Sequence record: NC_048799.1
From: Escherichia phage Mangalitsa
Direction: 5' to 3' (one strand)
Length of the DNA: 52,329 nt
In this document: positions 6,810-42,927 of the stretch, in pieces
How positions within the stretch are numbered: position 1 is the first letter of the stretch
Layout: each line of letters begins with the position of its first letter
The notes under the pieces: generated by a model
The model's input: the letters and a program-made list of their open reading frames with translations, nothing else
Databases searched by the model: none
What the model was told of the DNA's origin: nothing
Program-made: the position numbers and the translations under genes

Positions 6810-6850
6810 ATTAACAAGGGGCATTCATTGAGTGTTCCTGATTAATTCAA

Positions 6851-6870
6851 CATTAGTTGGATGTGAGAGA
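6851..6870 (+). promoter_or_regulatory. phage-RNAP-type promoter CATTAGTTGGATGTGAGAGA
   Basis: Motif family member, 70 nt upstream of the SSB-tail gene. Confidence 0.55.
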
Positions 6871-6938: not shown

Positions 6939-7313
6939 ATGGCACAATTTAACGATTTAAACACTGGTATTCTGGGTTCCAATGGCTTCAAGAAAGCTGA
7001 AAATCATCCAGACGTTCGTGGTCGCATTAACGTAGAAGGTATTTGGTATTGGGTGTCTGGCTGGAATAAGAAAGCTGGCAACACCGAATTTACCTCATTG
7101 GCACTCACCATCATGACTCAGGAACAGGTTGATGAAATGATGCGTAAGCGTGAAGAGAAGGCTAAAGCCAAAGCTCAACCTCAAGCTGCCGCTCAACAGC
7201 AACAGCCACGCCAGCAGCCAACTCAGCAACAGCAAGCTCCTGCTCAACAACAACAGCAGAGCAATTATAACCCGAACGAGCCGAAAGACTTCGACGACGA
7301 CATTCCATTCTAA
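6939..7313 (+). CDS. mini SSB-like protein: short N-domain, Gln/Pro-rich linker and a C-terminal tip identical to E. coli SSB (DFDDDIPF)
   Basis: C-terminus ...NPNEPKDFDDDIPF; low-complexity linker QPQAAAQQQQPRQQPTQQQQAPAQQQQQ; N-terminal 70 aa is too short for a canonical OB-fold SSB. Confidence 0.55.
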   Translation: MAQFNDLNTGILGSNGFKKAENHPDVRGRINVEGIWYWVSGWNKKAGNTEFTSLALTIMTQEQVDEMMRKREEKAKAKAQPQAAAQQQQPRQQPTQQQQAPAQQQQQSNYNPNEPKDFDDDIPF

Positions 7314-7326
7314 TTGGAGATGCCCT

Positions 7327-7446
7327 ATGAAAATTTTATGTTTTATAGGGCTACATAATTGGGAGATTTCTCATACAAACGATTATGTAACCTTTTGGGT
7401 GTGTAAGCACTGCTCAGAAATGCGTGAGGAGTATCATGGACAATAA
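7327..7446 (+). CDS. hypothetical small Cys/His-containing peptide (39 aa)
   Basis: GGAGA RBS; MKILCFIGLHNWEISHTNDYVTFWVCKHC...; below ORF-track cutoff. Confidence 0.3.
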   Translation: MKILCFIGLHNWEISHTNDYVTFWVCKHCSEMREEYHGQ

Positions 7447-7912: not shown

Positions 7913-7964
7913 TTAACAGAGGTCATTCCACTTCGAGTGGCCTCGATTAATTATTGGAGGTTAC

Positions 7965-8924: not shown

Positions 8925-9315
8925 TGTTAAGTTGGGCCAACGCTCACTTGACCGACTCAAGGGTGTAAATCCCTCATTAGTGGCAGTTTTCAAGCGTGCA
9001 TGTGAAACAATGCCGTTTGATGTAACTGTTCTTGAAGGATTGCGCACTTATGAGCGCCAACAAGAGCTTTTAAAGCAGGGTGCAACCAAAGTTTCAGTTA
9101 GCCGACACATGTCAGGCAATGCTTTAGACATTGCACCATATCCAATTGACTGGAATGACCTCGAACGATTCCAAATTGTAGCTGAACACATGTTCAAAGC
9201 CGCAGAAGAGCTTGGAATTGTCATTCGTTGGGGCGGAACATGGGAGCGTTCATTCACTAAGCCAGTGAAATGGGCTAAATTCCTAGACGCACCACACTTC
9301 GAACTTCCAGCATAA
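8917..9315 (+). CDS. peptidase M15 family, T5 Lys-like L-alanyl-D-glutamate endopeptidase (endolysin candidate)
   Basis: SRHMSGNALDIAPYPIDWNDLERF, IRWGGTW and PHFEL match the zinc-peptidase signature of T5-type endolysins as recalled; ATG 8917 overlaps upstream stop. Confidence 0.7.
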   Translation: MSNVKLGQRSLDRLKGVNPSLVAVFKRACETMPFDVTVLEGLRTYERQQELLKQGATKVSVSRHMSGNALDIAPYPIDWNDLERFQIVAEHMFKAAEELGIVIRWGGTWERSFTKPVKWAKFLDAPHFELPA

Positions 9316-10381: not shown

Positions 10382-10591
10382 TTCCAGGCGGTTTCTTCGA
10401 AGTGCCAAGCGGGTTTGTTGCTCGCATTGGCCTTCGGCATTCTTCTGGGGCATTAGTGGGATTTGATTCTGACCTCTTAGGGAAGAAAGGCATTATACAC
10501 TTATCGCCAAATAGGTGTCAAGCACTTTCTTCATTTATTTTAATTTATTCTTATTATTCTTTTTGTTTGGAATATTGGAATAATTCTTAAA

Positions 10592-10610
10592 CATTAGTTG
10601 GAATTGAAAT
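10592..10610 (+). promoter_or_regulatory. phage-RNAP-type promoter CATTAGTTGGAATTGAAAT
   Basis: Motif family member, ending 1 nt before the ATG at 10609. Confidence 0.5.
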
Positions 10611-10785
10611 GATTAAAGTCCTGGAAAAAGATAATGTAACCTTCACACGCCAATGCCAGTTGTGTGCCTCTGTTGTGTCTTATGAATTCTCTGACTTAAA
10701 GATGCGCACAGGAAAGAATGACCGAGGATACTTCGCATACAGATTTATTCCTTGTCCTGTTTGTAAGAAAGATATTCGACATTAG
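10609..10785 (+). CDS. hypothetical zinc-ribbon protein (58 aa)
   Basis: CQLC ... CPVC pairs; stop codon lies inside the next promoter motif; below ORF-track cutoff. Confidence 0.45.
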   Translation: MIKVLEKDNVTFTRQCQLCASVVSYEFSDLKMRTGKNDRGYFAYRFIPCPVCKKDIRH

Positions 10786-10799
10786 TTGGAATTGGAGAA
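10780..10799 (+). promoter_or_regulatory. phage-RNAP-type promoter CATTAGTTGGAATTGGAGAA
   Basis: Motif family member; transcription would enter the GC-rich 10800..11434 leader. Confidence 0.5.
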
Positions 10800-11434
10800 A
10801 CAACATCAGATAATAACTTTGTAACTCGGTAGACCGTTGCGGCCGCATCGTGAGAGAATGTTCGACTCATTCTGCAAAGTTATTTTCGATGGAATGTTTC
10901 CATCACATACATTTATCTTTTAACATAGGCCAAAGGGCCGGAATACTTCTTCGCAGAAAAGCTATTCACTTGTTATAGGCGATGTATTGGGATGAATTGG
11001 AACTAAATAAGCAAGCTGTTAGGGCTGAATAATTAGAGGGTAGTGCCTCATGCTTATGTTAGTCATTCGAAAATAGGTTTGTGCCACAAGCTGCTGGTGC
11101 TCTGAGGAAGTCGGACAAACAGGGCTTAGAGTGGCATAATCCGCACAAAACCTCGCCACCAGCTATGCCAAAGCAGGTGGATTGGGTGAATGTATTGGGA
11201 AGGGTTGCAAAGCCTCTGTGACACGCCTGAGCCGCAAGGCGACGACACTCATGTGATTAGCGTATCGCACCCCTAACGGGAGTAACCCTTCACCAATGCA
11301 GTTATCCAGAATTGACACAAACGGTAGGCAGCGGCCCGATTTTCGGCCTTCCTGCGCTGCCCTGTGGCCTGTTTCCTGGGCCAAAAGATGAGAAGAGAAG
11401 TCACAAACACTGAATCGAAAATTGGAGAGTTCCT

Positions 11435-14818: not shown

Positions 14819-15055
14819 ATGCAACAGCTTAAGTCAATCTTTCTTGGCGTCTTGACTGCATTGGGTATTCTCCTTGCAGTGTTCCTCAAAGGCAAAAGCT
14901 CAGGCAAAGCCGAGGAGCGCCAGGAAGCCAAAGAGAAGCAATTCGATTCCATTAAAGAATCTATCGAGATTAAAACGCATGTTCAGAAAGAAGTGTCTAG
15001 CAGTTCTGATAGCAATGTCGATAGTGAGTTGCTCTCAAAGTGGGTTCGTAAGTGA
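14819..15055 (+). CDS. small membrane-anchored protein, possible i-spanin-like
   Basis: N-terminal TM IFLGVLTALGILLAVFL followed by a charged helical region; AAGGTG RBS. Confidence 0.4.
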   Translation: MQQLKSIFLGVLTALGILLAVFLKGKSSGKAEERQEAKEKQFDSIKESIEIKTHVQKEVSSSSDSNVDSELLSKWVRK

Positions 15056-15188
15056 TTACTGCATGATTGCACAACCAATATATTTGGATGTTGCAGAAGT
15101 GAAAGTTTTGTCACGCGAAACCAAAACACAGATTTTAGTCCACAATGAAACGTGGGCACAAAAGTGTTCGAAACTTACCCGACAGTGA
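14979..15188 (+). CDS. possible o-spanin-like lipoprotein overlapping the preceding gene in the +1 frame
   Basis: MFRKKCLAVLIAMSIVSC: positive n-region, hydrophobic core and lipobox-like IVSC; starts inside 14819..15055 and extends past it; rare codons weaken the call. Confidence 0.3.
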   Translation: MFRKKCLAVLIAMSIVSCSQSGFVSDYCMIAQPIYLDVAEVKVLSRETKTQILVHNETWAQKCSKLTRQ

Positions 15189-16085
15189 GTGAACAAGACG
15201 GACGTCTATAACTTCCCACATAAAGTCGAGGGAGTGCGCGACTTTAAATAACGAGACTCTAGCCACTTGTGGTATGGCAGGTGTAATTCCTGCAAGTTGC
15301 TCTGGGCATAACAATTGAAATTGCTGCCTCGCATTGAACGCGAAAAAGTTCAGGTAGTCACTTCCTAGAACAGTGGCCGGGAACAGACCTAGACAAAAGT
15401 GCTTGAGAACGTTAGCTCTGTCTTGCCAGCATTAATGGCACGTTGGCCGCGTAAAGGCCACAGCGTCTGACCAACGTATCGGTCAACCAAATTCAACGGA
15501 TTCGTAGAGTTAATGAAACCTGCACGATGGGATAGGGATGAAGCATCCGAGGCCGACTGTGTAATTGTGAACGCGGAGTTCACCGAATCCACCAAATCAA
15601 TGGGCTAGTGCAAATGTCAGTCACTAGAAGATGTGTTGCAAAACGTCTTCCATGATGTGCAAAGTGTCAGTCACGTGCCCACCACTTTCCTAACAGTTAT
15701 GCCTCTGTTCAAAAGGCTCATGCGAGCGTCTGGCATACCGTAGCGATACGGCTTAGTTGCGCTGATTGTGTTGTGTCGAAAGAAAGTTCAGGCTTTCGTT
15801 TGAGTTCCTCCTCATCTCGAAGTTAGCTGGATTCAAAATCCAGACTATGTTCCTATTCACATGAAATATGCAAGTCGAGGGTTCTTAATATCTGACATAG
15901 GTATTAAGCGGGTTTATACTTTTCCCCGATGGTCCCCATAAACAAGGTTGATTCACTTGGGCGGTTCGAATCAAATTTAATAAGTGTCTTGGCCGCAGTG
16001 GAAACATCATTTAAGCCAATTTATTGTAATGTTCGTAATAGTCCACGTCAGGGCACTTACTTAAATTTTATCTAGAGAGAGAAAC

Positions 16086-21084: not shown

Positions 21085-21951
21085 ATGGCATTTGCTGCTC
21101 CTACCCTGGCCTCGAACAAGACTCCTTCTGCTGCACCATTACTGGAAGCGGGTGGTTATCCTGCTCGTGTTTGCCGTATTATCGACCTGGGCCTACAGCC
21201 TGGTTCTGCTAAATATCCTACCCCGTCTCTGAAACTTCTGGTTTCTTTCGAACTTCTCGACGAGTACATGAAAGAAGTTGATGGCGAAGGTAAAATGGTC
21301 ATGGTCCAAGACCCGGACGAAGATGACGGCGTAATGATGGCGAAGAATCTTGAAGACAAGCCGCGTTGGTTTGACTTTGAGTTTACCTACAACGCTGACG
21401 GCTTCATGGGTGACAACTCCCACATCTACAAATTCGCTAAAGCGATTGATGCTCTGGAAGTTAAACAGAATCTGGAACAAGGCATTCAGGGCCATCCTGC
21501 CAAGAACCTGCCAGATTGGTTGGGCGAACCTCTGATTGTTGGCATTGTTCAGTATACCAAGCAGTCCGGTAAGAATGCTGGCCAGGTTGCAAACAAAGTT
21601 GCTACCTTCTCTCCGATGAAATCTAAGGAGAAGAAAGAAGCTAAAGCTCTGGTTAACCCGACTGTCTTCTTTGACATGTCTGAGCCGGACCTGGAAGTAT
21701 TCAACAAACTGCCAGGTGGCGAATCTCCGTATGCAATCAAGAACCGTATTACTTCCGGTGTTGATTTCTACAAGACTAAGCTGTCTGCACTATTAGGCGG
21801 TAAGCCTGCCGATGAAGGCGCTGTACCGAATCAGGCTTCTGATGAAGAAGTTGATGCAGCTATGAAAGCTGAACTGGAAGCACAGGCTGCTGCAAAAGCA
21901 CAGCGTGAAGCGGAAGGTGGTGCTGCTGGCGGTACTGGAATGCCCTTTTAA
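21085..21951 (+). CDS. candidate ssDNA-binding or annealing protein with flexible tail ending in GMPF
   Basis: Sits immediately after DNAP; high-expression codon usage; Ala/Gly/Glu-rich C-terminal region ending ...GGTGMPF, reminiscent of gp2.5 or SSB tails. Confidence 0.35.
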   Translation: MAFAAPTLASNKTPSAAPLLEAGGYPARVCRIIDLGLQPGSAKYPTPSLKLLVSFELLDEYMKEVDGEGKMVMVQDPDEDDGVMMAKNLEDKPRWFDFEFTYNADGFMGDNSHIYKFAKAIDALEVKQNLEQGIQGHPAKNLPDWLGEPLIVGIVQYTKQSGKNAGQVANKVATFSPMKSKEKKEAKALVNPTVFFDMSEPDLEVFNKLPGGESPYAIKNRITSGVDFYKTKLSALLGGKPADEGAVPNQASDEEVDAAMKAELEAQAAAKAQREAEGGAAGGTGMPF

Positions 21952-21959
21952 TCATAATT

Positions 21960-21982
21960 GGCTCCTTCGGGAGCCTTTAATT
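21960..21982 (+). terminator. intrinsic terminator, GGCUCC-UUCG-GGAGCC hairpin plus U-rich tract
   Basis: Perfect 6-bp stem with UUCG tetraloop then TTTAATTT. Confidence 0.6.
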
Positions 21983-21992
21983 TGGAATTCAA

Positions 21993-22421
21993 ATGAAAGT
22001 TTGTAGTTCATGTAAAACACCAAAGCCTTTATCTGAATTCTATAAATGGAAGTTGGGTAAAGATGGGCATCGAGCAAGCTGCAAGTTTTGTGTAAACAAA
22101 CAAAACAACAGCAGCATAAGCAAGAACCCAGAGGCCAAACTTCGAGCAAACCGTAAGTATAAGAAAGTTAATATCGACAAAGTTCGAGAGCAAACTTCTT
22201 TGTACAGAAACTCAAACCCAATAAAACGTGCAGCACATGTTGCAGTCCAAATAGCTCTTAGAGAGCACAGACTTGTAAAAGGTGCTTGCGAATGTTGTGG
22301 AGATACTAATTCAGTAGCTCACCACGACGACTATTCCAAGCCTCTGGATGTGAGGTGGTTGTGCAACTTCCACCACAAACAGTGGCACACCAAGAACGGA
22401 GAAGGACTTAATGGTAAGTAA
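21993..22421 (+). CDS. HNH endonuclease
   Basis: N-terminal CxxC pairs; C-terminal AHHDDY...WLCNFHH HNH-like motif. Confidence 0.5.
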   Translation: MKVCSSCKTPKPLSEFYKWKLGKDGHRASCKFCVNKQNNSSISKNPEAKLRANRKYKKVNIDKVREQTSLYRNSNPIKRAAHVAVQIALREHRLVKGACECCGDTNSVAHHDDYSKPLDVRWLCNFHHKQWHTKNGEGLNGK

Positions 22422-24717: not shown

Positions 24718-25336
24718 GCGACTAGCTGTTATTCTTAATGGACCTCCTGGCTGCGGTAAAGACACTATTGCCAATAAGATTATTGCTGCTGAGGAATCCT
24801 ACTTCCTCGGTAGGCGCAAATTCATTAAACATCAGTTTAAGGATGCACTGTATGAGCATACTGCCAAACACTTTCAAGTTGATGTGGACAAGTTTATTCA
24901 CTATGCTTCGGACCGTGACCTCAAAGACTCTATCTCCCTTGCAGGTCTTGGTGGCAGAACACCTCGTCAAGCTCTTATTCATGTTAGTGAAGACATATAT
25001 AAGCCTCGCCACGGACAAGACTATTTTGGTCAAGTTGAAGCGGCTCGTGTTAAAGAACTCACGGGGCGTATGGGTGGCGTTGTTAATGTCATTTATCCCG
25101 ATGGCGGTTTTGGCGATGAAGTCGTTGCCATTGAGTCTGCTTATGATTTTGTCATCATTGTGCGTTTGCATCGTGGTGGTTATGATTTCAAAGGCGATTC
25201 TCGCAGATACATCGAACTCCCAAACACACCTACCCGCGTAACAGTGGATGAACATCTAATTGATGGTAAAGTGGGTGATGCTGTATTCAAAGTGTTCAAC
25301 TGGATTGAGCGCGTAACTCATCAAGTAGAGAAATAA
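24710..25336 (+). CDS. P-loop kinase, candidate deoxynucleoside monophosphate kinase (T4 gp1-like)
   Basis: Walker A LNGPPGCGKDT; start uncertain (TTG 24710 or GTG 24698); the ORF-track frame overlaps the ligase. Confidence 0.5.
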   Translation: MIKRLAVILNGPPGCGKDTIANKIIAAEESYFLGRRKFIKHQFKDALYEHTAKHFQVDVDKFIHYASDRDLKDSISLAGLGGRTPRQALIHVSEDIYKPRHGQDYFGQVEAARVKELTGRMGGVVNVIYPDGGFGDEVVAIESAYDFVIIVRLHRGGYDFKGDSRRYIELPNTPTRVTVDEHLIDGKVGDAVFKVFNWIERVTHQVEK

Positions 25337-25338
25337 TC

Positions 25339-25791
25339 ATGTCTTGTATGACTCAAGTTGTTGCTGTAAAGCGAGTGCATCCTAATGCGAAATTACCTGT
25401 GTACGCTACTGCTGGCGCTGCTGCTGCTGACGTTTGCACTATCTCCGATAGCACTGTTGTTATCAATCCCGGCTGCTCTGCTGTTTTCGATACTGGCCTC
25501 CAGTTCGAGATTCCAATTGGATACGAACTCAAAGTGCATAGCCGTTCTGGTCACGGCTTTAAGTCTGGCATTCGCCTGGCAAACTGCACAGGAATTCTGG
25601 ACTCCGATTATCGTGGCAATCTTATGGTTAAGTTGCACAACGATTCGGACACAGCCTTTGTGGTTCAGCCAGGTGAACGTATTTGTCAGGTGCAAGTTAG
25701 TAAAGCTACTCAACACCATTTCGTTGAAGTTGACCTCTTAAATTCCACTGTTCGTGGTGAAGGTGGGTTTGGTTCAACTGGACGAGTTTAG
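25339..25791 (+). CDS. dut: dUTP pyrophosphatase (dUTPase)
   Basis: All five dUTPase motifs: AGAAAADV, HSRSGHG, GILDSDYRGNL, RICQVQV, RGEGGFGSTGR. Confidence 0.85.
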   Translation: MSCMTQVVAVKRVHPNAKLPVYATAGAAAADVCTISDSTVVINPGCSAVFDTGLQFEIPIGYELKVHSRSGHGFKSGIRLANCTGILDSDYRGNLMVKLHNDSDTAFVVQPGERICQVQVSKATQHHFVEVDLLNSTVRGEGGFGSTGRV

Positions 25792-26151: not shown

Positions 26152-26167
26152 GCGGCACGCATAATAG

Positions 26168-26194
26168 GGAGGCTATCTGGCCTCCTATCTTATT
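26168..26194 (+). terminator. candidate intrinsic terminator
   Basis: GGAGGC / GCCTCC stem with 6-nt loop, followed by TATCTTATT. Confidence 0.4.
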
Positions 26195-26205
26195 CGGAGT
26201 CGCTT

Positions 26206-26391
26206 ATGCGCACAATACAATGTCCCAACTGTCATTATGAAATTGCTGAAGATGATTTCATAACGCAACAATGTCCTATCTGTGATTCATACATGCCGCT
26301 AAACCGCCTATACTTAAAGGCTGATTCTGGTTTGGGCAGCATCATTCGCATTAATCCCGTGCAAACTTTGCCATTAGTGGATTGTGATTAA
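26206..26391 (+). CDS. hypothetical zinc-ribbon protein (61 aa)
   Basis: CPNC ... CPIC pairs. Confidence 0.45.
   Translation: MRTIQCPNCHYEIAEDDFITQQCPICDSYMPLNRLYLKADSGLGSIIRINPVQTLPLVDCD
26372..26390 (+). promoter_or_regulatory. phage-RNAP-type promoter, variant class (CATTAGTGGATTGTGATTA), upstream of terminase
   Basis: 17 of 19 positions identical to the copy at 132; overlaps the end of the zinc-ribbon gene. Confidence 0.5.
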
Positions 26392-26410: not shown

Positions 26411-28429
26411 ATGTCAAAGACTGATGACCTCGGACCAGAGTTTAACGATACAGTTGCCAGCTATCTCGTTAAGAACTATGGTGACGTTTTAAAAGTCTCA
26501 AGAGAGAGATTCTGTATTCTATCTTTGCCATTGCTCCGTCGATATATTTCAGAAAATACTGCAATAGTTGACAGCTATGAAGAACAAATTCAAGCAGAGT
26601 TAGAAGGCCAGGGTCTGGAAAACGATGCGGTTCTTCGTTCCGTTTTCAAAGCACAACTTGAGCGTCTTCGCTCTGGCGATAAGAAAGACTCAACTGCCTA
26701 TGCAGACGAGTTGAAGAAAGGTATCCAAGCAGGTGTTACTGACCGTGTTGCAGGTTCCACTTTAGAGGAGCCAAACGCTGAACACGATAACACCGAAGAA
26801 CTTGTAGACAAGATTCTGCATGACCCACATAACGTGGACCCAACTGTAATCCCTGCCAAGGTTGCAGAACGTGTTCGCAAAATCTTGATGAAGAGTTTCG
26901 AAGCCTTTGGTAAGTGGCAGTTCCACATTCAGATGGGATTCCCATTCCAGGCACAAGACTTTCACGATGTAATATTCAGTGTTGGTCAGAAGGTTGTTGA
27001 TGGCGAGATTGACCGCTTAATAGTTACCATTCCTCCACGACACTCTAAGACTCAGCTTATGAGTATTGCATTGCCCTTGTATTCATTTTGCCACAATGAA
27101 TCAAGCCATAACATTATCACCTCGTATGCAGAAGACGTTGTTCTTGAATCAAGTGGTTACATCCGTGCAGTAATGATGGACCCACTATTCCAACGCATAT
27201 TCCCGAAGGTGAGAATAGACCCGAACAAACGTTCTCTTGAGCGTTGGGGTACGACCAAAGCTGGCGTAATGCACGCTGTTCCTACTGGTGGTAAGCTAAC
27301 TGGTAAGGGTGCTGGCCTGTTGGTTGCAAACTATTCCGGCTGCTTTGTGGTCGATGACGTAATCAAGCCTAAAGATGCCTATTCAGACACAGTTCGAGCG
27401 GAGATTAACGACCGATTCGATAACACCTTTATGTCCCGTCTTGCAAATGATGGTTGCATAACCGACTCTCGTGGCAATCAAATCAAGTGTGCTCGTACAC
27501 CAATGGTTATCATTATGCAGAGGGTGCATGACCAAGATTTAGTTGGATATATACTTCGTGGTGGCTCGTCTGATAAGTACCATTACCTAAACATCCCAGC
27601 CATTATTGAGAAAGGTGTGGGAAGTGCTGAATGGTATGACAAGTTAATTAAGAAGCAGAACTACACTCATGCTATTCCGATTCTTTACAATTTGAACAGG
27701 AAGGAAGAGAAGTCTGCATTGTGGCCTTCACGTAAGAGTTTAGATTCTCTGGAGGCAATGAAAGAGTCCAACCCATATACATACAATTCACAGTATGCTG
27801 GCGACCCATCTGCACAAGGCCATGGCCTCGTTAAAGAAGATTGGTGGCAGGAATATGAACCGGATGCTTTCGACAGAAGTCGCATAGTTAGAAGTTTTAT
27901 CACTGCTGATACGGCATCAACTGCCAAGTCATATTCTGACTATTCGGTCCTGAAGCATTGGGGCGTGACTAAAGAGCGAGATGTCTATTGTTTAGATATC
28001 ATGCTTGGTAAGTTTGAAACTCCAGAACTCAAGACTGCTATCATCGACTTCTGGAACAAATGCAACAAGTTGGACTTGAAAGCTGTAGGCTGTATTCCTC
28101 GTGCATTGTACATGGAAGACAAGTCTGCTGGACAATTCTTGAACCAACAATTTATTAGAGATGGGAGTGTCCGAGTCTTACCTCTGCCCCGTGATGGTGT
28201 GAATGGTAACGACAAGGTAACTCGATTCCTTAACGCAATCCCATATTTCTCACAAAAGAGAATATTCTTCCCTGCTGGTCATGAACACATCGACCACGTT
28301 AGACGTGAAATACTTGGATTCACTTCTTTGGGTAGCGGTACTGGACACGACGATTGTGTCGATAACGTCTCAGATATGGTTGCAATCGAATTCTCCGGCC
28401 CAAGTGCCAACTACTCGGCATGGATGTAA
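26411..28429 (+). CDS. terminase large subunit
   Basis: Large ORF immediately upstream of portal; ATPase-like segment DRLIVTIPPRHSKTQ and acidic C-terminal nuclease-like region; start ATG 26411 or GTG 26384. Confidence 0.65.
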   Translation: MSKTDDLGPEFNDTVASYLVKNYGDVLKVSRERFCILSLPLLRRYISENTAIVDSYEEQIQAELEGQGLENDAVLRSVFKAQLERLRSGDKKDSTAYADELKKGIQAGVTDRVAGSTLEEPNAEHDNTEELVDKILHDPHNVDPTVIPAKVAERVRKILMKSFEAFGKWQFHIQMGFPFQAQDFHDVIFSVGQKVVDGEIDRLIVTIPPRHSKTQLMSIALPLYSFCHNESSHNIITSYAEDVVLESSGYIRAVMMDPLFQRIFPKVRIDPNKRSLERWGTTKAGVMHAVPTGGKLTGKGAGLLVANYSGCFVVDDVIKPKDAYSDTVRAEINDRFDNTFMSRLANDGCITDSRGNQIKCARTPMVIIMQRVHDQDLVGYILRGGSSDKYHYLNIPAIIEKGVGSAEWYDKLIKKQNYTHAIPILYNLNRKEEKSALWPSRKSLDSLEAMKESNPYTYNSQYAGDPSAQGHGLVKEDWWQEYEPDAFDRSRIVRSFITADTASTAKSYSDYSVLKHWGVTKERDVYCLDIMLGKFETPELKTAIIDFWNKCNKLDLKAVGCIPRALYMEDKSAGQFLNQQFIRDGSVRVLPLPRDGVNGNDKVTRFLNAIPYFSQKRIFFPAGHEHIDHVRREILGFTSLGSGTGHDDCVDNVSDMVAIEFSGPSANYSAWM

Positions 28430-40930: not shown

Positions 40931-42025
40931 ATGCCGTGGATGCGCAGAGTTGAGATAATTGTTTCTCGTAAAGATGACCCAAGTGTGCAGACGATATTCA
41001 AATCACATCGAATTGATTTCGAAGTTCGTTCTACTGTTGGGTGGCCCGCCGATACGGCAAACGTAACTCTGTTCAACTTGTCTTTGGAAGAAGTTAAGTT
41101 CTTGCAGGATAAGTCCTACGGAGATATGTATATCGAAATTCGTGCAGGGTATGCGGAAGATGAACGTGGCGCTTCTTCTGGTGGCGTTAAGAACTACCGA
41201 AGGTCCGAATCTTCTAGCAATGTTATCGAAGTAAATACTTCACTACCTACGCTTTTCTCCGGGATAATTACGAACGCAGTTGGCTACAGAAAGCCTCCTG
41301 AACATGTTACGCAGCTATTCTGTATTTCGAAAGCGTATGGTGCATCAACCGACTTCTCCCAAATGAAAGCAATTCCTCCTGGGTCAACCTTGAAGGATGC
41401 TATTCGCTCTATGTGTTTGGATTATGGCTTTAATACCATTTCCACATTTGGCGTAGAAGATGAAGTAATGAATCAAGTTATGCCTCGTGGTCGTGTGTTC
41501 CACGATACATTCCTTATTGAGTTTCGTGCGATGTTGGGAGAATACAACCTCCTGTTCTCCGTAACCACTGGCGAGATTCAAATATTCCCAGATACCTTTG
41601 GGGATAAAGATGCAGTAAACAGAATGTCCAAAGACCGTGAACCAATCAAGTTGGATGCCAACTCTGTTATTGGGAACCCTGTTGCTGGAATCTGCACCTA
41701 CACACTTAGCACCTTCCTGAACCCAACATACCAACCAGGCATGATTCTGGATGTGTCACCACTCCTAGGAACACAACTTCTTGCAAATGGTGTGACTGCA
41801 ATACAAGGTGATGGTATTGTTCTTAATACTGACCAATCAGTATTTCGTTGGGCTGTTGAAGATAAATACTTCATCATGGAAGTTGTTCATAAAGGTTCTA
41901 CACACGCCATTGATTATAAGACTTCCATCACTGCAATCCTTGGTGGCAATACTATGATGGGTGGTAAAGAGGCTGCGTGGCAAGAGATGTATGCCAATAG
42001 TGGCATGGCTATGGAGTCATTCTAA
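40931..42025 (+). CDS. putative baseplate hub / tail protein
   Basis: Positional (first gene after tape measure). Confidence 0.35.
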   Translation: MPWMRRVEIIVSRKDDPSVQTIFKSHRIDFEVRSTVGWPADTANVTLFNLSLEEVKFLQDKSYGDMYIEIRAGYAEDERGASSGGVKNYRRSESSSNVIEVNTSLPTLFSGIITNAVGYRKPPEHVTQLFCISKAYGASTDFSQMKAIPPGSTLKDAIRSMCLDYGFNTISTFGVEDEVMNQVMPRGRVFHDTFLIEFRAMLGEYNLLFSVTTGEIQIFPDTFGDKDAVNRMSKDREPIKLDANSVIGNPVAGICTYTLSTFLNPTYQPGMILDVSPLLGTQLLANGVTAIQGDGIVLNTDQSVFRWAVEDKYFIMEVVHKGSTHAIDYKTSITAILGGNTMMGGKEAAWQEMYANSGMAMESF

Positions 42026-42927
42026 TGTCTATTTTCGATACAAACTTAATTGATAGTGCTGCTGGTGTTCTCAAGAACTTTAGTTATGGGCATCACCCTT
42101 CAATTGTTATGTGGTCCAACGGAGTAGTTGACCAAAAGGAAGATGATGACTCTTTCCTTGGTAGCATAACTGGTGGCATATCTCGTGCACTGGAAAGTAT
42201 TCCGCTTGTTGGCGATTCTCTTCCAGAAAGTTTTAGTTCTTTTAAATTTGATGCAATGGTTAGCGAGGAACACGAAGCCGCATCAACTGTAACCAAGTTC
42301 CCTGTAAGCTCTGGCTTTCTTGTAAGCGACCATGTTATTAACCAGAACCGAGTCTTGAAGCTGACTGCTGTTGCTGTCAACATGCAGAACTCCTCAATGT
42401 GGTCTGCTTCACTACAAGGCTTGTCTGTAGCAACTGGTGCAATCTTCAACTCCCCAGCTTTGTCTGTTATGGGAAGTGCAATTGGTGCTGTTGCTTCAAC
42501 ATTTGAAACAAGCAACCGAATTCAATCAACCTACGATTTGTTTAACAATTTCCGAACAACGGGAAAGAAGCTCTACATATCCACAATACTCGGCCCGTAC
42601 CTGAACTGTGTAGTGACGTCCATTAAGGCGAAGCACGACAAGAACACTTCAGCAATGCTGGCAGTTGAGATTCTGTTGGAAGAGCTTCAAACAATAGGCA
42701 CGGATGCCTTGGCGGTGGAGGCAAGAAAGGCAATGGAATCAATGTACGACTATTCCGACTTTGCTAAGACTGCAACAAACTTAGGGATGGGTGCGCTTGG
42801 TGGTGTTCCTCTTCCAGGATTAGGTGATGTATTTGGCGCATCTTCTGTAACACAACTTGCCAACCTTAAAGGCAAACTTGAGTTACTCAATTCTCCAGTA
42901 TCTTCTGTTAAGGGTGTTCTCCTGTGA
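42025..42927 (+). CDS. putative baseplate protein
   Basis: Positional; translationally coupled. Confidence 0.35.
   Translation: MSIFDTNLIDSAAGVLKNFSYGHHPSIVMWSNGVVDQKEDDDSFLGSITGGISRALESIPLVGDSLPESFSSFKFDAMVSEEHEAASTVTKFPVSSGFLVSDHVINQNRVLKLTAVAVNMQNSSMWSASLQGLSVATGAIFNSPALSVMGSAIGAVASTFETSNRIQSTYDLFNNFRTTGKKLYISTILGPYLNCVVTSIKAKHDKNTSAMLAVEILLEELQTIGTDALAVEARKAMESMYDYSDFAKTATNLGMGALGGVPLPGLGDVFGASSVTQLANLKGKLELLNSPVSSVKGVLL

Follow-up and report, generated by a model that had tools for sequence, protein, structure and literature searches.

Three small cysteine-motif genes of Escherichia phage Mangalitsa are conserved but mutually unrelated, and one of them lies in a promoter-bounded cassette

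We analysed the complete genome of Escherichia phage Mangalitsa (NC_048799.1; 52,329 bp, referred to here as the window), in which three very small open reading frames (ORFs) encode proteins with cysteine motifs: ORF1 (39 aa), ORF2 (58 aa) and ORF3 (61 aa), at 7327..7446, 10609..10785 and 26206..26391, respectively. A sequence-only reading of this DNA had described them as Cys-rich or zinc-ribbon ORFs below standard ORF-calling thresholds and had suggested that, as small zinc-binding proteins of a phage early region, they might inhibit host RNA polymerase or a defence system. Its coordinates, lengths and Cys motifs were all exact. By megablast, Mangalitsa is a phiEcoM-GJ1-like coliphage (Chaseviridae, Cleopatravirinae, Carltongylesvirus), and the phiEcoM-GJ1-like relatives are myoviruses with a gene for a T7-like single-subunit RNA polymerase (RNAP). 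Exact-sequence look-up in GenBank/RefSeq identified the ORFs as Mangalitsa_016 (gp16, YP_009850486.1), Mangalitsa_027 (gp27, YP_009850497.1) and gp53 (YP_009850523.1), each annotated as 'hypothetical protein'; in the phiEcoM-GJ1 annotation, the homologues of ORF1 and ORF3 are gp16 and gp46. That such ORFs escape gene calling is correct for several relatives, in that ORF1 is uncalled in FXie-2024a, PO103-1 and Pel53, ORF2 in PO103-1, Erwinia phage Faunus and Pectobacterium phage PM1, and ORF3 in SKA49, PO103-1 and phiA050, but phiEcoM-GJ1, Mangalitsa, SA91KD and others do annotate these small ORFs. The ribosome-binding sites that had been proposed are likewise convincing in part: ORF1 and ORF3 each follow a GGAG and are tightly spaced, whereas ORF2 has only a weak GGA, situated within the promoter that abuts its ATG. 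A Shine-Dalgarno site equivalent to that of ORF3 is listed for ORF50 of ST32 (PMC6266442).

All three ORFs are real, conserved and already catalogued protein-coding genes. In alignments of relatives, the ratio of non-synonymous to synonymous change (dN/dS) is 0.154 for ORF1, 0.179 for ORF2 and 0.113 for ORF3 in frame, and 1.3-2.2 in the two other frames of the same alignments. A cruder count, in which codon variants were scored against the consensus, gave a synonymous excess for each gene (binomial p=6e-6 for ORF1, 1e-8 for ORF2 and 6e-11 for ORF3), and no relative has an internal stop in any of the three. Conservation in relatives, which had been named as a check on these ORFs, is thus present for all three and takes the form of frame-specific purifying selection. 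It is on this conservation and selection, and not on the motif pattern, that we take the ORFs to be genes. A pair of CxxC knuckles occurs in 2 of the 452 small ORFs (30-90 aa) in the six frames of the window, where 1.15 +/- 1.1 are expected by chance (100 order-1 Markov resamplings of the window), and the motif count, not being above chance, was rejected as evidence.

This last result is what would be expected if the ORFs were chance open frames whose conservation stemmed from overlapping DNA or RNA signals, such as promoters and gene starts, and not from proteins. ORF2 does have a promoter on either side, one of which it overlaps, ORF1 runs into the start of the gp17-like gene, and at ~88% identity between the sequences a frame of 39 aa could remain free of stops by chance. 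However, dN/dS values of 0.11-0.18 in frame as against 1.3-2.2 out of frame, together with the significant synonymous excess, speak for selection on proteins, the ligand residues of ORF2 and ORF3 are invariant across genera at 40-47% overall identity, there are full-length matches to independent PHROG families, and the fold prediction for ORF2 is confident. The chance-frame explanation is already disfavoured, and we regard it as very improbable.

From the purifying selection, the invariant Cys/His ligands and the modelling of ORF2 and of ORF3's N-terminal half as zinc ribbons, we infer that each protein is most probably a single module held by one structural zinc ion. The description of the ORFs as genuine genes for small, most probably zinc-binding proteins is therefore supported. 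They do not, however, make up the single class in which they had been placed: ORF1, ORF2 and ORF3 are mutually unrelated in sequence, fall into different PHROG families, represent three different modules and lie in different genomic settings (Table 1).

Table 1. Positions of the three genes and of the features around them (window coordinates, except for the last three rows)
Feature	Position	Strand	Remarks
ORF1, 39-aa protein, C-x4-H...C-x2-C	7327..7446	+	Mangalitsa gp16, homologous to phiEcoM-GJ1 gp16
Shine-Dalgarno GGAG of ORF1	7316..7319	+	7 nt before ATG, read from sequence
Predicted phage-RNAP promoter	6848..6867	+	Core CATTAGTTGGA at 6851-6861; head of SSB-ORF1-gp17 unit
Single-stranded DNA-binding protein (SSB) gene	6939..7313	+	phrog_7364, E=1e-38; annotated SSB in relatives
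gp17-like gene, 158 aa	7436..7912	+	phrog_20048; start overlaps ORF1 end by 11 nt
Terminator-like hairpin closing SSB-ORF1-gp17 unit	7919..7944	+	Terminator annotated at equivalent place in SA91KD
ORF2, 58-aa CxxC...CxxC predicted zinc-ribbon protein	10609..10785	+	Mangalitsa gp27, phrog_2834 member
Third, upstream promoter-like site, predicted	10448..10467	+	One core mismatch; phiEcoM-GJ1 'promoter 4'
Phage promoter copy A, predicted	10589..10608	+	AAACATTAGTTGGAATTGAA; ends one base before ORF2 ATG; phiEcoM-GJ1 'promoter 5'
Phage promoter copy B, predicted	10777..10796	+	CGACATTAGTTGGAATTGGA; overlaps ORF2 end; repeat family D1
ORF3, 61-aa protein, predicted zinc ribbon (residues 1-30) and conserved tail	26206..26391	+	Mangalitsa gp53, phiEcoM-GJ1 gp46 homologue
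Shine-Dalgarno GGAG of ORF3	26196..26199	+	6 nt before ATG, read from sequence
gp45-like gene, 109 aa	25822..26151	+	phrog_18523; constant upstream neighbour of ORF3
Terminator-like hairpin between gp45-like gene and ORF3	26167..26186	+	8-bp stem, 5 G-C pairs, then T-rich tail
Large terminase subunit (TerL) gene	26411..28429	+	Pfam Terminase_6C, phrog_38; constant downstream neighbour of ORF3
Related RNA region, relative's locus L009	3901-4432
Related RNA region, relative's locus L010	4708-4846
Related RNA region, relative's locus L037	7076-7209

ORF2 is set apart by the way in which it is inserted in the genome. The gene lies between two copies of a phage promoter, recognised with the consensus AAACATTAGTTGGAWNTGAN annotated in phiEcoM-GJ1; the consensus has about twelve occurrences on the + strand of the window, all of which are predictions. 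In the ICTV profile, promoters of the family are described as not yet identified (PMC12842549). Copies A and B are identical over 16 nt and 188 nt apart (repeats at 10591 and 10779). Copy B starts within the last two codons of ORF2, its CATTAG encoding His58 and the TAG stop. In phiEcoM-GJ1 and SA91KD, which have no ORF2, a single promoter copy remains, and in phiEcoM-GJ1 the sequence that comes after copy B in the window (GAAACAACATCAGATAA...) directly follows this single copy. Because relatives without ORF2 keep one copy joined to the shared downstream sequence, ORF2 plus one promoter copy constitutes a discrete 188-nt unit, which may have been gained or lost by recombination between promoter copies. 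At the same site SA91KD has an unrelated insert of 126 nt, and PYps16N has a 36-aa ORF. Elsewhere in the window, two further promoter-like sites, 256 nt apart (2621-2887), bracket a small ORF at ~2649-2825, a sign that gene units running from one promoter to the next may be typical of the left part of the genome.

In Mangalitsa, Faunus and PM1, 0-4 nt separate the ATG from the aligned 20-nt promoter; in Faunus the distance from the core is 7 nt and the CATTAG of a second promoter once more contains the stop, while in PM1 the promoter abuts the ATG of the ORF2 relative. When these promoters are aligned with T7/K11-type promoters, transcription would presumably start 0-4 nt before the AUG. The gene might therefore be expressed from an mRNA that begins at the ATG and has no leader or almost none. 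Alternatively, it may be translated from read-through transcripts of the upstream promoter (10451), with the promoter's own TTGGA(G/A) acting as Shine-Dalgarno sequence; in transcripts that read through from the site at 10448..10467, the 5' leader of ORF2 would contain copy A. The promoter cores at 10451, 10592 and 10780 (window 10448-10796) also flank an AT-rich stretch (10500-10590, GC 0.31), and the primary replication origin of T7 is laid out in a similar way, with tandem promoters and an AT-rich region.

The arrangement is reminiscent of the PeSL elements, promoter-bounded mobile gene cassettes of T4-type phages that were reportedly described by Arbiol and colleagues in 2010. In both, a small accessory ORF sits between direct promoter repeats and is present or absent in collinear relatives, with a single repeat where it is absent. 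In the case of ORF2, however, the repeat is a predicted promoter of a single-subunit phage RNA polymerase and has no stem-loop, and the gene takes both its start context and its stop codon from the repeat.

The ORF2 protein, with motifs C16-QL-C19 and C49-PV-C52, belongs to phrog_2834 (E=1e-10, residues 1-57 on profile positions 4-60 of 78). Its AlphaFold2 model (pLDDT 87.5) has strands at residues 11-15, 22-26, 31-37, 40-48 and 55-57 and confidently predicts a compact five-stranded zinc ribbon. The gene is present in only 8 of ~45 Carltongylesvirus records. Relatives with 41-47% identity are stand-alone ORFs of 61-67 aa in phages of Erwinia and Pectobacterium and in rV5-like phages of Klebsiella and Salmonella, and share with ORF2 the residues C-x2-C, V, Y, D, A-Y-R, C-P-x-C and I-R-H. 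In these other phages the phrog_2834 genes lie among replication and recombination genes rather than in a promoter-bounded slot, and the family has no characterised member. A word-indexed homology search with ORF2 gave three matches, to near-identical proteins only. We envisage ORF2 as a dispensable accessory protein of the host-interaction or counter-defence type, which would bind its partner through a beta surface.

Two other descriptions of ORF2 were considered and rejected. The first, a fragment of endonuclease VII, arises from a label at the match in Klebsiella phage K18PH07C1, where the relative is a separate 64-aa frame and the 'endonuclease VII' label belongs to a coding sequence (CDS) flagged as a pseudogene. 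ORF2 has no Pfam match to the endonuclease VII family and, judged by eye against the T4 endonuclease VII sequence, seems to have no HxDH-type motif. The second, a longer form of 89-92 aa annotated in FXie-2024a, PYps16N and Ecp_YSF, is interrupted in the window by an in-frame TAA at 10588-10590; it is also disfavoured by the 58-aa annotation in Pel53 and by the fact that the extension crosses the AT-rich promoter region.

Between promoter copy B and the next gene, window 10797-11434 (~640 nt) contains no credible ORF on either strand. This region is 87-97.5% identical in seven relatives, above the flanking coding DNA, and its long invariant runs are broken by hairpin-sized segments that are swapped wholesale. 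RNAalifold predicted 194 pairs, with most single changes converting G-U to G-C or A-U. Within a domain of 134 positions (window 11181-11316), a ~22-bp helix is kept with different sequence in Faunus and PM1, and a covariance model, built with Sabourvirus 4HA13 left out, found the domain in the equivalent syntenic gap of that phage (76 bits on the + strand vs 26 on the - strand). Over four genera, 88.6% of the cells pair vs 38-49% when the partners are slid, and 11 of 34 pairs have compensatory double changes vs 2-4 in the slid controls. In phiEcoM-GJ1, the centre of the region is replaced by an ORF annotated as 'SbcC-like'. Rfam gave no match to the region even at E<=1. The z-score of the minimum free energy was rejected as evidence for RNA structure, as the value of -2.9 compares with -2.1 to -2.9 for same-strand coding controls. 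On the basis of the alignments, the region looks like a candidate for an undescribed structured RNA or structured leader of the Cleopatravirinae.

ORF1 (MKILCFIGLHNWEISHTNDYVTFWVCKHCSEMREEYHGQ) is, in contrast to the patchy ORF2, found in all 44 Carltongylesvirus records, at 84-95% amino acid identity; outside the genus there was no tblastn match among the 50,697 phage records searched. Cys5, His10, Cys26 and Cys29 are invariant in the relatives. His28 was rejected as a ligand since it is Asn in phage TH53, which leaves C5, H10, C26 and C29 as the ligand set. The gene is the middle one of an SSB-ORF1-gp17 unit headed by a predicted promoter that corresponds to 'putative phage promoter 3' annotated in phiEcoM-GJ1. 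Only 13 nt separate the SSB stop from the start of ORF1, a GAGGAG sits inside ORF1, and the ORF1/gp17 overlap of 11 nt is also annotated in phiEcoM-GJ1, SA91KD and PYps16N. The conserved overlap, with the GAGGAG inside ORF1, suggests coupled translation. ORF1 would be made from a phage-promoter transcript covering SSB, ORF1 and gp17, its translation probably coupled to that of gp17, and may function as a small adaptor acting with gp17 or with replication proteins. The SSB C-terminus (7290-7313) ends in DFDDDIPF, and the SSB of Faunus ends likewise. This acidic tip, the same as in E. coli SSB, may serve to attract SSB-interacting proteins of the host or the small protein whose gene adjoins that of SSB.

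ORF3 combines the motifs C6-PN-C9 and C23-PI-C26, with an invariant EDDF between the knuckles; in the family alignment M1, C6, C9, E15, D16, D17, F18, P24, C26, D27, S28, M30, L43 and R48 are invariant. It is a full-length member of phrog_21735, the unannotated family of phiEcoM-GJ1 gp46 (E=8.7e-39, residues 1-61 on profile positions 1-61 of 61), and is 98% identical to phiEcoM-GJ1 gp46. The homologue in ST32, of identical length, has a mass of 7 kDa and a pI of 4.4 (PMC6266442). By tblastn, the gene was found in 80 phage records, comprising phages of Escherichia, Yersinia, Erwinia, Pectobacterium, Pantoea, Dickeya and Proteus and one Aeromonas phage, and a word-indexed homology search gave four matches, to near-identical proteins only. 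In the AlphaFold2 model, strands 3-5 and 12-14 are formed within residues 1-30 (pLDDT ~73-82; tail, 44-60), so that the N-terminal half is a predicted zinc ribbon. Conserved low-confidence tails often fold on a partner, and that of ORF3 probably folds only in this way.

The nearest structural and sequence neighbours of ORF2 and ORF3 are generic zinc ribbons (Spt4/RpoE'', TFIIB, LysW, NZF/RanBP2 fingers and rubredoxin knuckles), with which they share two CxxC knuckles on beta hairpins. Searches of PDB sequences with the three ORFs gave generic zinc-ribbon or rubredoxin matches only (E>=0.015). The best PDB-sequence match of ORF3, Helicobacter Tip-alpha, was discarded, as the alignment excludes the cysteines. 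Some records label ORF3 'DNA-directed RNA polymerase subunit' (Pel53) or 'HypA' (Farigoule, IMG), labels that, at E=0.01-0.1, reflect generic zinc-ribbon similarity only.

The order gp45-ORF3-TerL occurs in 23 of the 23 Cleopatravirinae loci that carry ORF3, which come from four or more named genera and from metagenomic contigs and include several duplicate copies of one genome; in Aeromonas phage phiA050 ORF3 also stands directly before TerL. In Mangalitsa, 19 nt separate the end of ORF3 from the TerL ATG, and no consensus phage promoter occurs between 21010 and 40891 of the window. ORF3 opens the packaging/morphogenesis block after a terminator-like hairpin and is not an early gene. The placement of the ORFs in an early region consequently applies, loosely, to ORF1 and ORF2, which lie in the DNA-metabolism part behind predicted phage-RNAP promoters, but not to ORF3. 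An HNH homing endonuclease gene stands between ORF3 and TerL in phiEcoM-GJ1 (21524-22015), PYps16N (25075-25566) and Pel53 (41901-42392) and is absent from Mangalitsa and most relatives; this insert rules out a frameshift fusion of ORF3 with TerL. TerL itself has an N-terminal extension of ~150 aa (residues 1-190 correspond to window 26411-26980) with no family match, and T1-like and other distant TerL homologues, which have no such extension, align only from about residue 155. Our best guess is that ORF3 assists DNA packaging or late morphogenesis as an accessory factor, which would bind the terminase or the product of a neighbouring gene and need not be the small terminase subunit itself.

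Taken together, we consider it fairly likely that these are three unrelated small genes, each encoding one structural-zinc module and each belonging to its own functional neighbourhood. Several observations weigh against this explanation, first of all for ORF1, whose fold class rests on four residues. An exhaustive HMMER scan of 1.84 billion representative proteins with an ORF1 profile recovered only ORF1 itself; a 389-aa repetitive protein, in which the CxxC segment matched nine times, was judged not homologous. The best of seven ORF1 variants scored 16.5 bits (E=0.013) against Pfam DUF1660 (PF07874), for which the threshold is 21.4; all seven match positions 1-33 of the 63-position profile, below the gathering threshold, and the match to phrog_2670 is also sub-threshold (E=0.002). 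In these weak alignments, the N-terminal 33-35 residues of ORF1, with the C-x4-H-x-W knuckle and the later CxxC, are matched from profile position 1 of DUF1660, and the C-terminal half of that profile is absent. ORF1 thus weakly resembles DUF1660, a likeness of sequence that stops short of membership: the protein has 39 aa as against 63 profile positions and no relative outside its genus, and DUF1660 is a family of uncharacterised prophage proteins on which no publication turned up in our literature search. As for a partnership with gp17, Faunus has a gp17 homologue and no ORF1 between it and SSB, so that gp17 does not need ORF1, which is a genus-level addition and not an obligatory partner.

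The proposed link of ORF3 to packaging is affected in a similar manner by Aeromonas phage AS2. Its TerL is 60% identical to that of Mangalitsa and 44% identical over the N-terminal extension, its 54.2-kb genome contains neither ORF3 (six-frame profile search, best E about 1) nor gp45, and nrdB abuts TerL upstream, which means that such a terminase can work without ORF3. Between genera, ORF3 is also the faster-evolving protein (40-62% identity vs 76-84% for TerL), and the adjacency of the two genes may simply reflect operon order.

A more specific proposal for ORF3 is that it represents the missing small terminase subunit (TerS) of the Cleopatravirinae, recognising DNA by means of its zinc ribbon and docking on the TerL extension through its conserved tail. 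Genomes of the family are non-permuted with ~3-kb terminal repeats (PMC12842549), and such genomes need site-specific packaging and a specificity factor; as a small terminase, ORF3 would direct cutting at the boundaries of these repeats. The ORF3 gene lies where a TerS gene is canonically found, just before that of TerL, in all loci described above and in phiA050, with the close spacing known from lambda Nu1 and T7 gp18. None of the relatives examined has an annotated small terminase, and we found no publication on a Chaseviridae small terminase or on zinc-ribbon small terminases. The family-specific extension of TerL and the conserved unstructured tail of ORF3, suggestive of folding on a partner, would fit the proposal as well. 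However, ORF3 has no match to TerS families in Pfam, PHROGs or NCBIfam and resembles the known small terminases in neither sequence nor fold, having a predicted zinc ribbon in place of a helix-turn-helix with an oligomerisation core; at 61 aa it is acidic (pI 4.4) and its model has no helical core for oligomerisation. ORF3 does not co-occur with its TerL clade either, as AS2 keeps the extension and lacks ORF3, and the role could be filled just as well by the gp45-like gene or by the extension itself. We consider it quite unlikely that ORF3 is the missing small terminase, and comparably so that it sets the repeat boundaries.

The inhibitor role offered by the sequence-only reading, in which one or more of the ORFs would be made early for takeover and would block host RNA polymerase or a defence system, is unsupported for all three. 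None of our searches linked any of them to such proteins, and there was no similarity to characterised inhibitors or defence components in Pfam, PHROGs, NCBIfam, PADLOC, PDB sequences or fold libraries, NCBIfam and PADLOC giving nothing usable for the three ORFs. None lies in the leftmost region beside the RNAP gene, which is transcribed by host RNAP; ORF1 is in every member of the genus, within an SSB operon behind a phage promoter, and ORF3 belongs to the packaging module. None of the three genes is covered by the data of a 2026 paper on phage Tiny. The phage's own T7-like RNA polymerase does make a factor that shuts off host RNAP plausible in principle. ORF2, moreover, is dispensable and patchy, and lies in a hypervariable, promoter-flanked hotspot that holds other inserts in relatives, with an 'antirestriction protein' gene ~500 nt upstream; patchy hotspot inserts are a typical setting of accessory and counter-defence genes. 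We judge an inhibitor among the three unlikely; ORF2 alone, as a dispensable hotspot insert, might on circumstantial grounds be one. The favoured explanation is still that of three separate structural-zinc modules in three neighbourhoods.

The records of relatives contained further observations that concern the family as a whole. 'Staphylococcus phage Pel53' (PP952070.1), with S. hyicus as its stated host, is a typical Carltongylesvirus, 87-97% identical to coliphages, and its host assignment looks doubtful from this similarity. The DNA polymerase CDS of 4HA13 (14905-16001) is annotated as joined from two pieces, implying an intron, and the tRNA-Arg of phiEcoM-GJ1 (8957-9051) is annotated as possibly intron-containing, which together suggest that self-splicing elements may occur in the family.

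As first put forward, the finding of three small zinc-type ORFs matters little, the genes being present in RefSeq and PHROGs and their link to host takeover being unsupported. Their uneven annotation over ~45 genomes illustrates that pipelines still drop small genes at random. The present analysis adds a description of how the promoter-bounded cassette of ORF2 is built, of how strictly ORF3 adjoins the terminase and where this adjacency has its limits, and of the operon in which ORF1 lies and overlaps its neighbour. The candidate structured RNA beside ORF2 may be a more valuable lead than the three ORFs. ORF3, short and amenable to experiment, is a candidate packaging cofactor in a family without a known small terminase, and if it were the small terminase, it would be of a kind unlike any described. 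ORF2 provides a clean example of promoter-mediated gene shuffling, starting at the edge of one promoter and stopping inside the next copy, and may exemplify how a phage with a T7-type polymerase expresses a gene from a leaderless mRNA.

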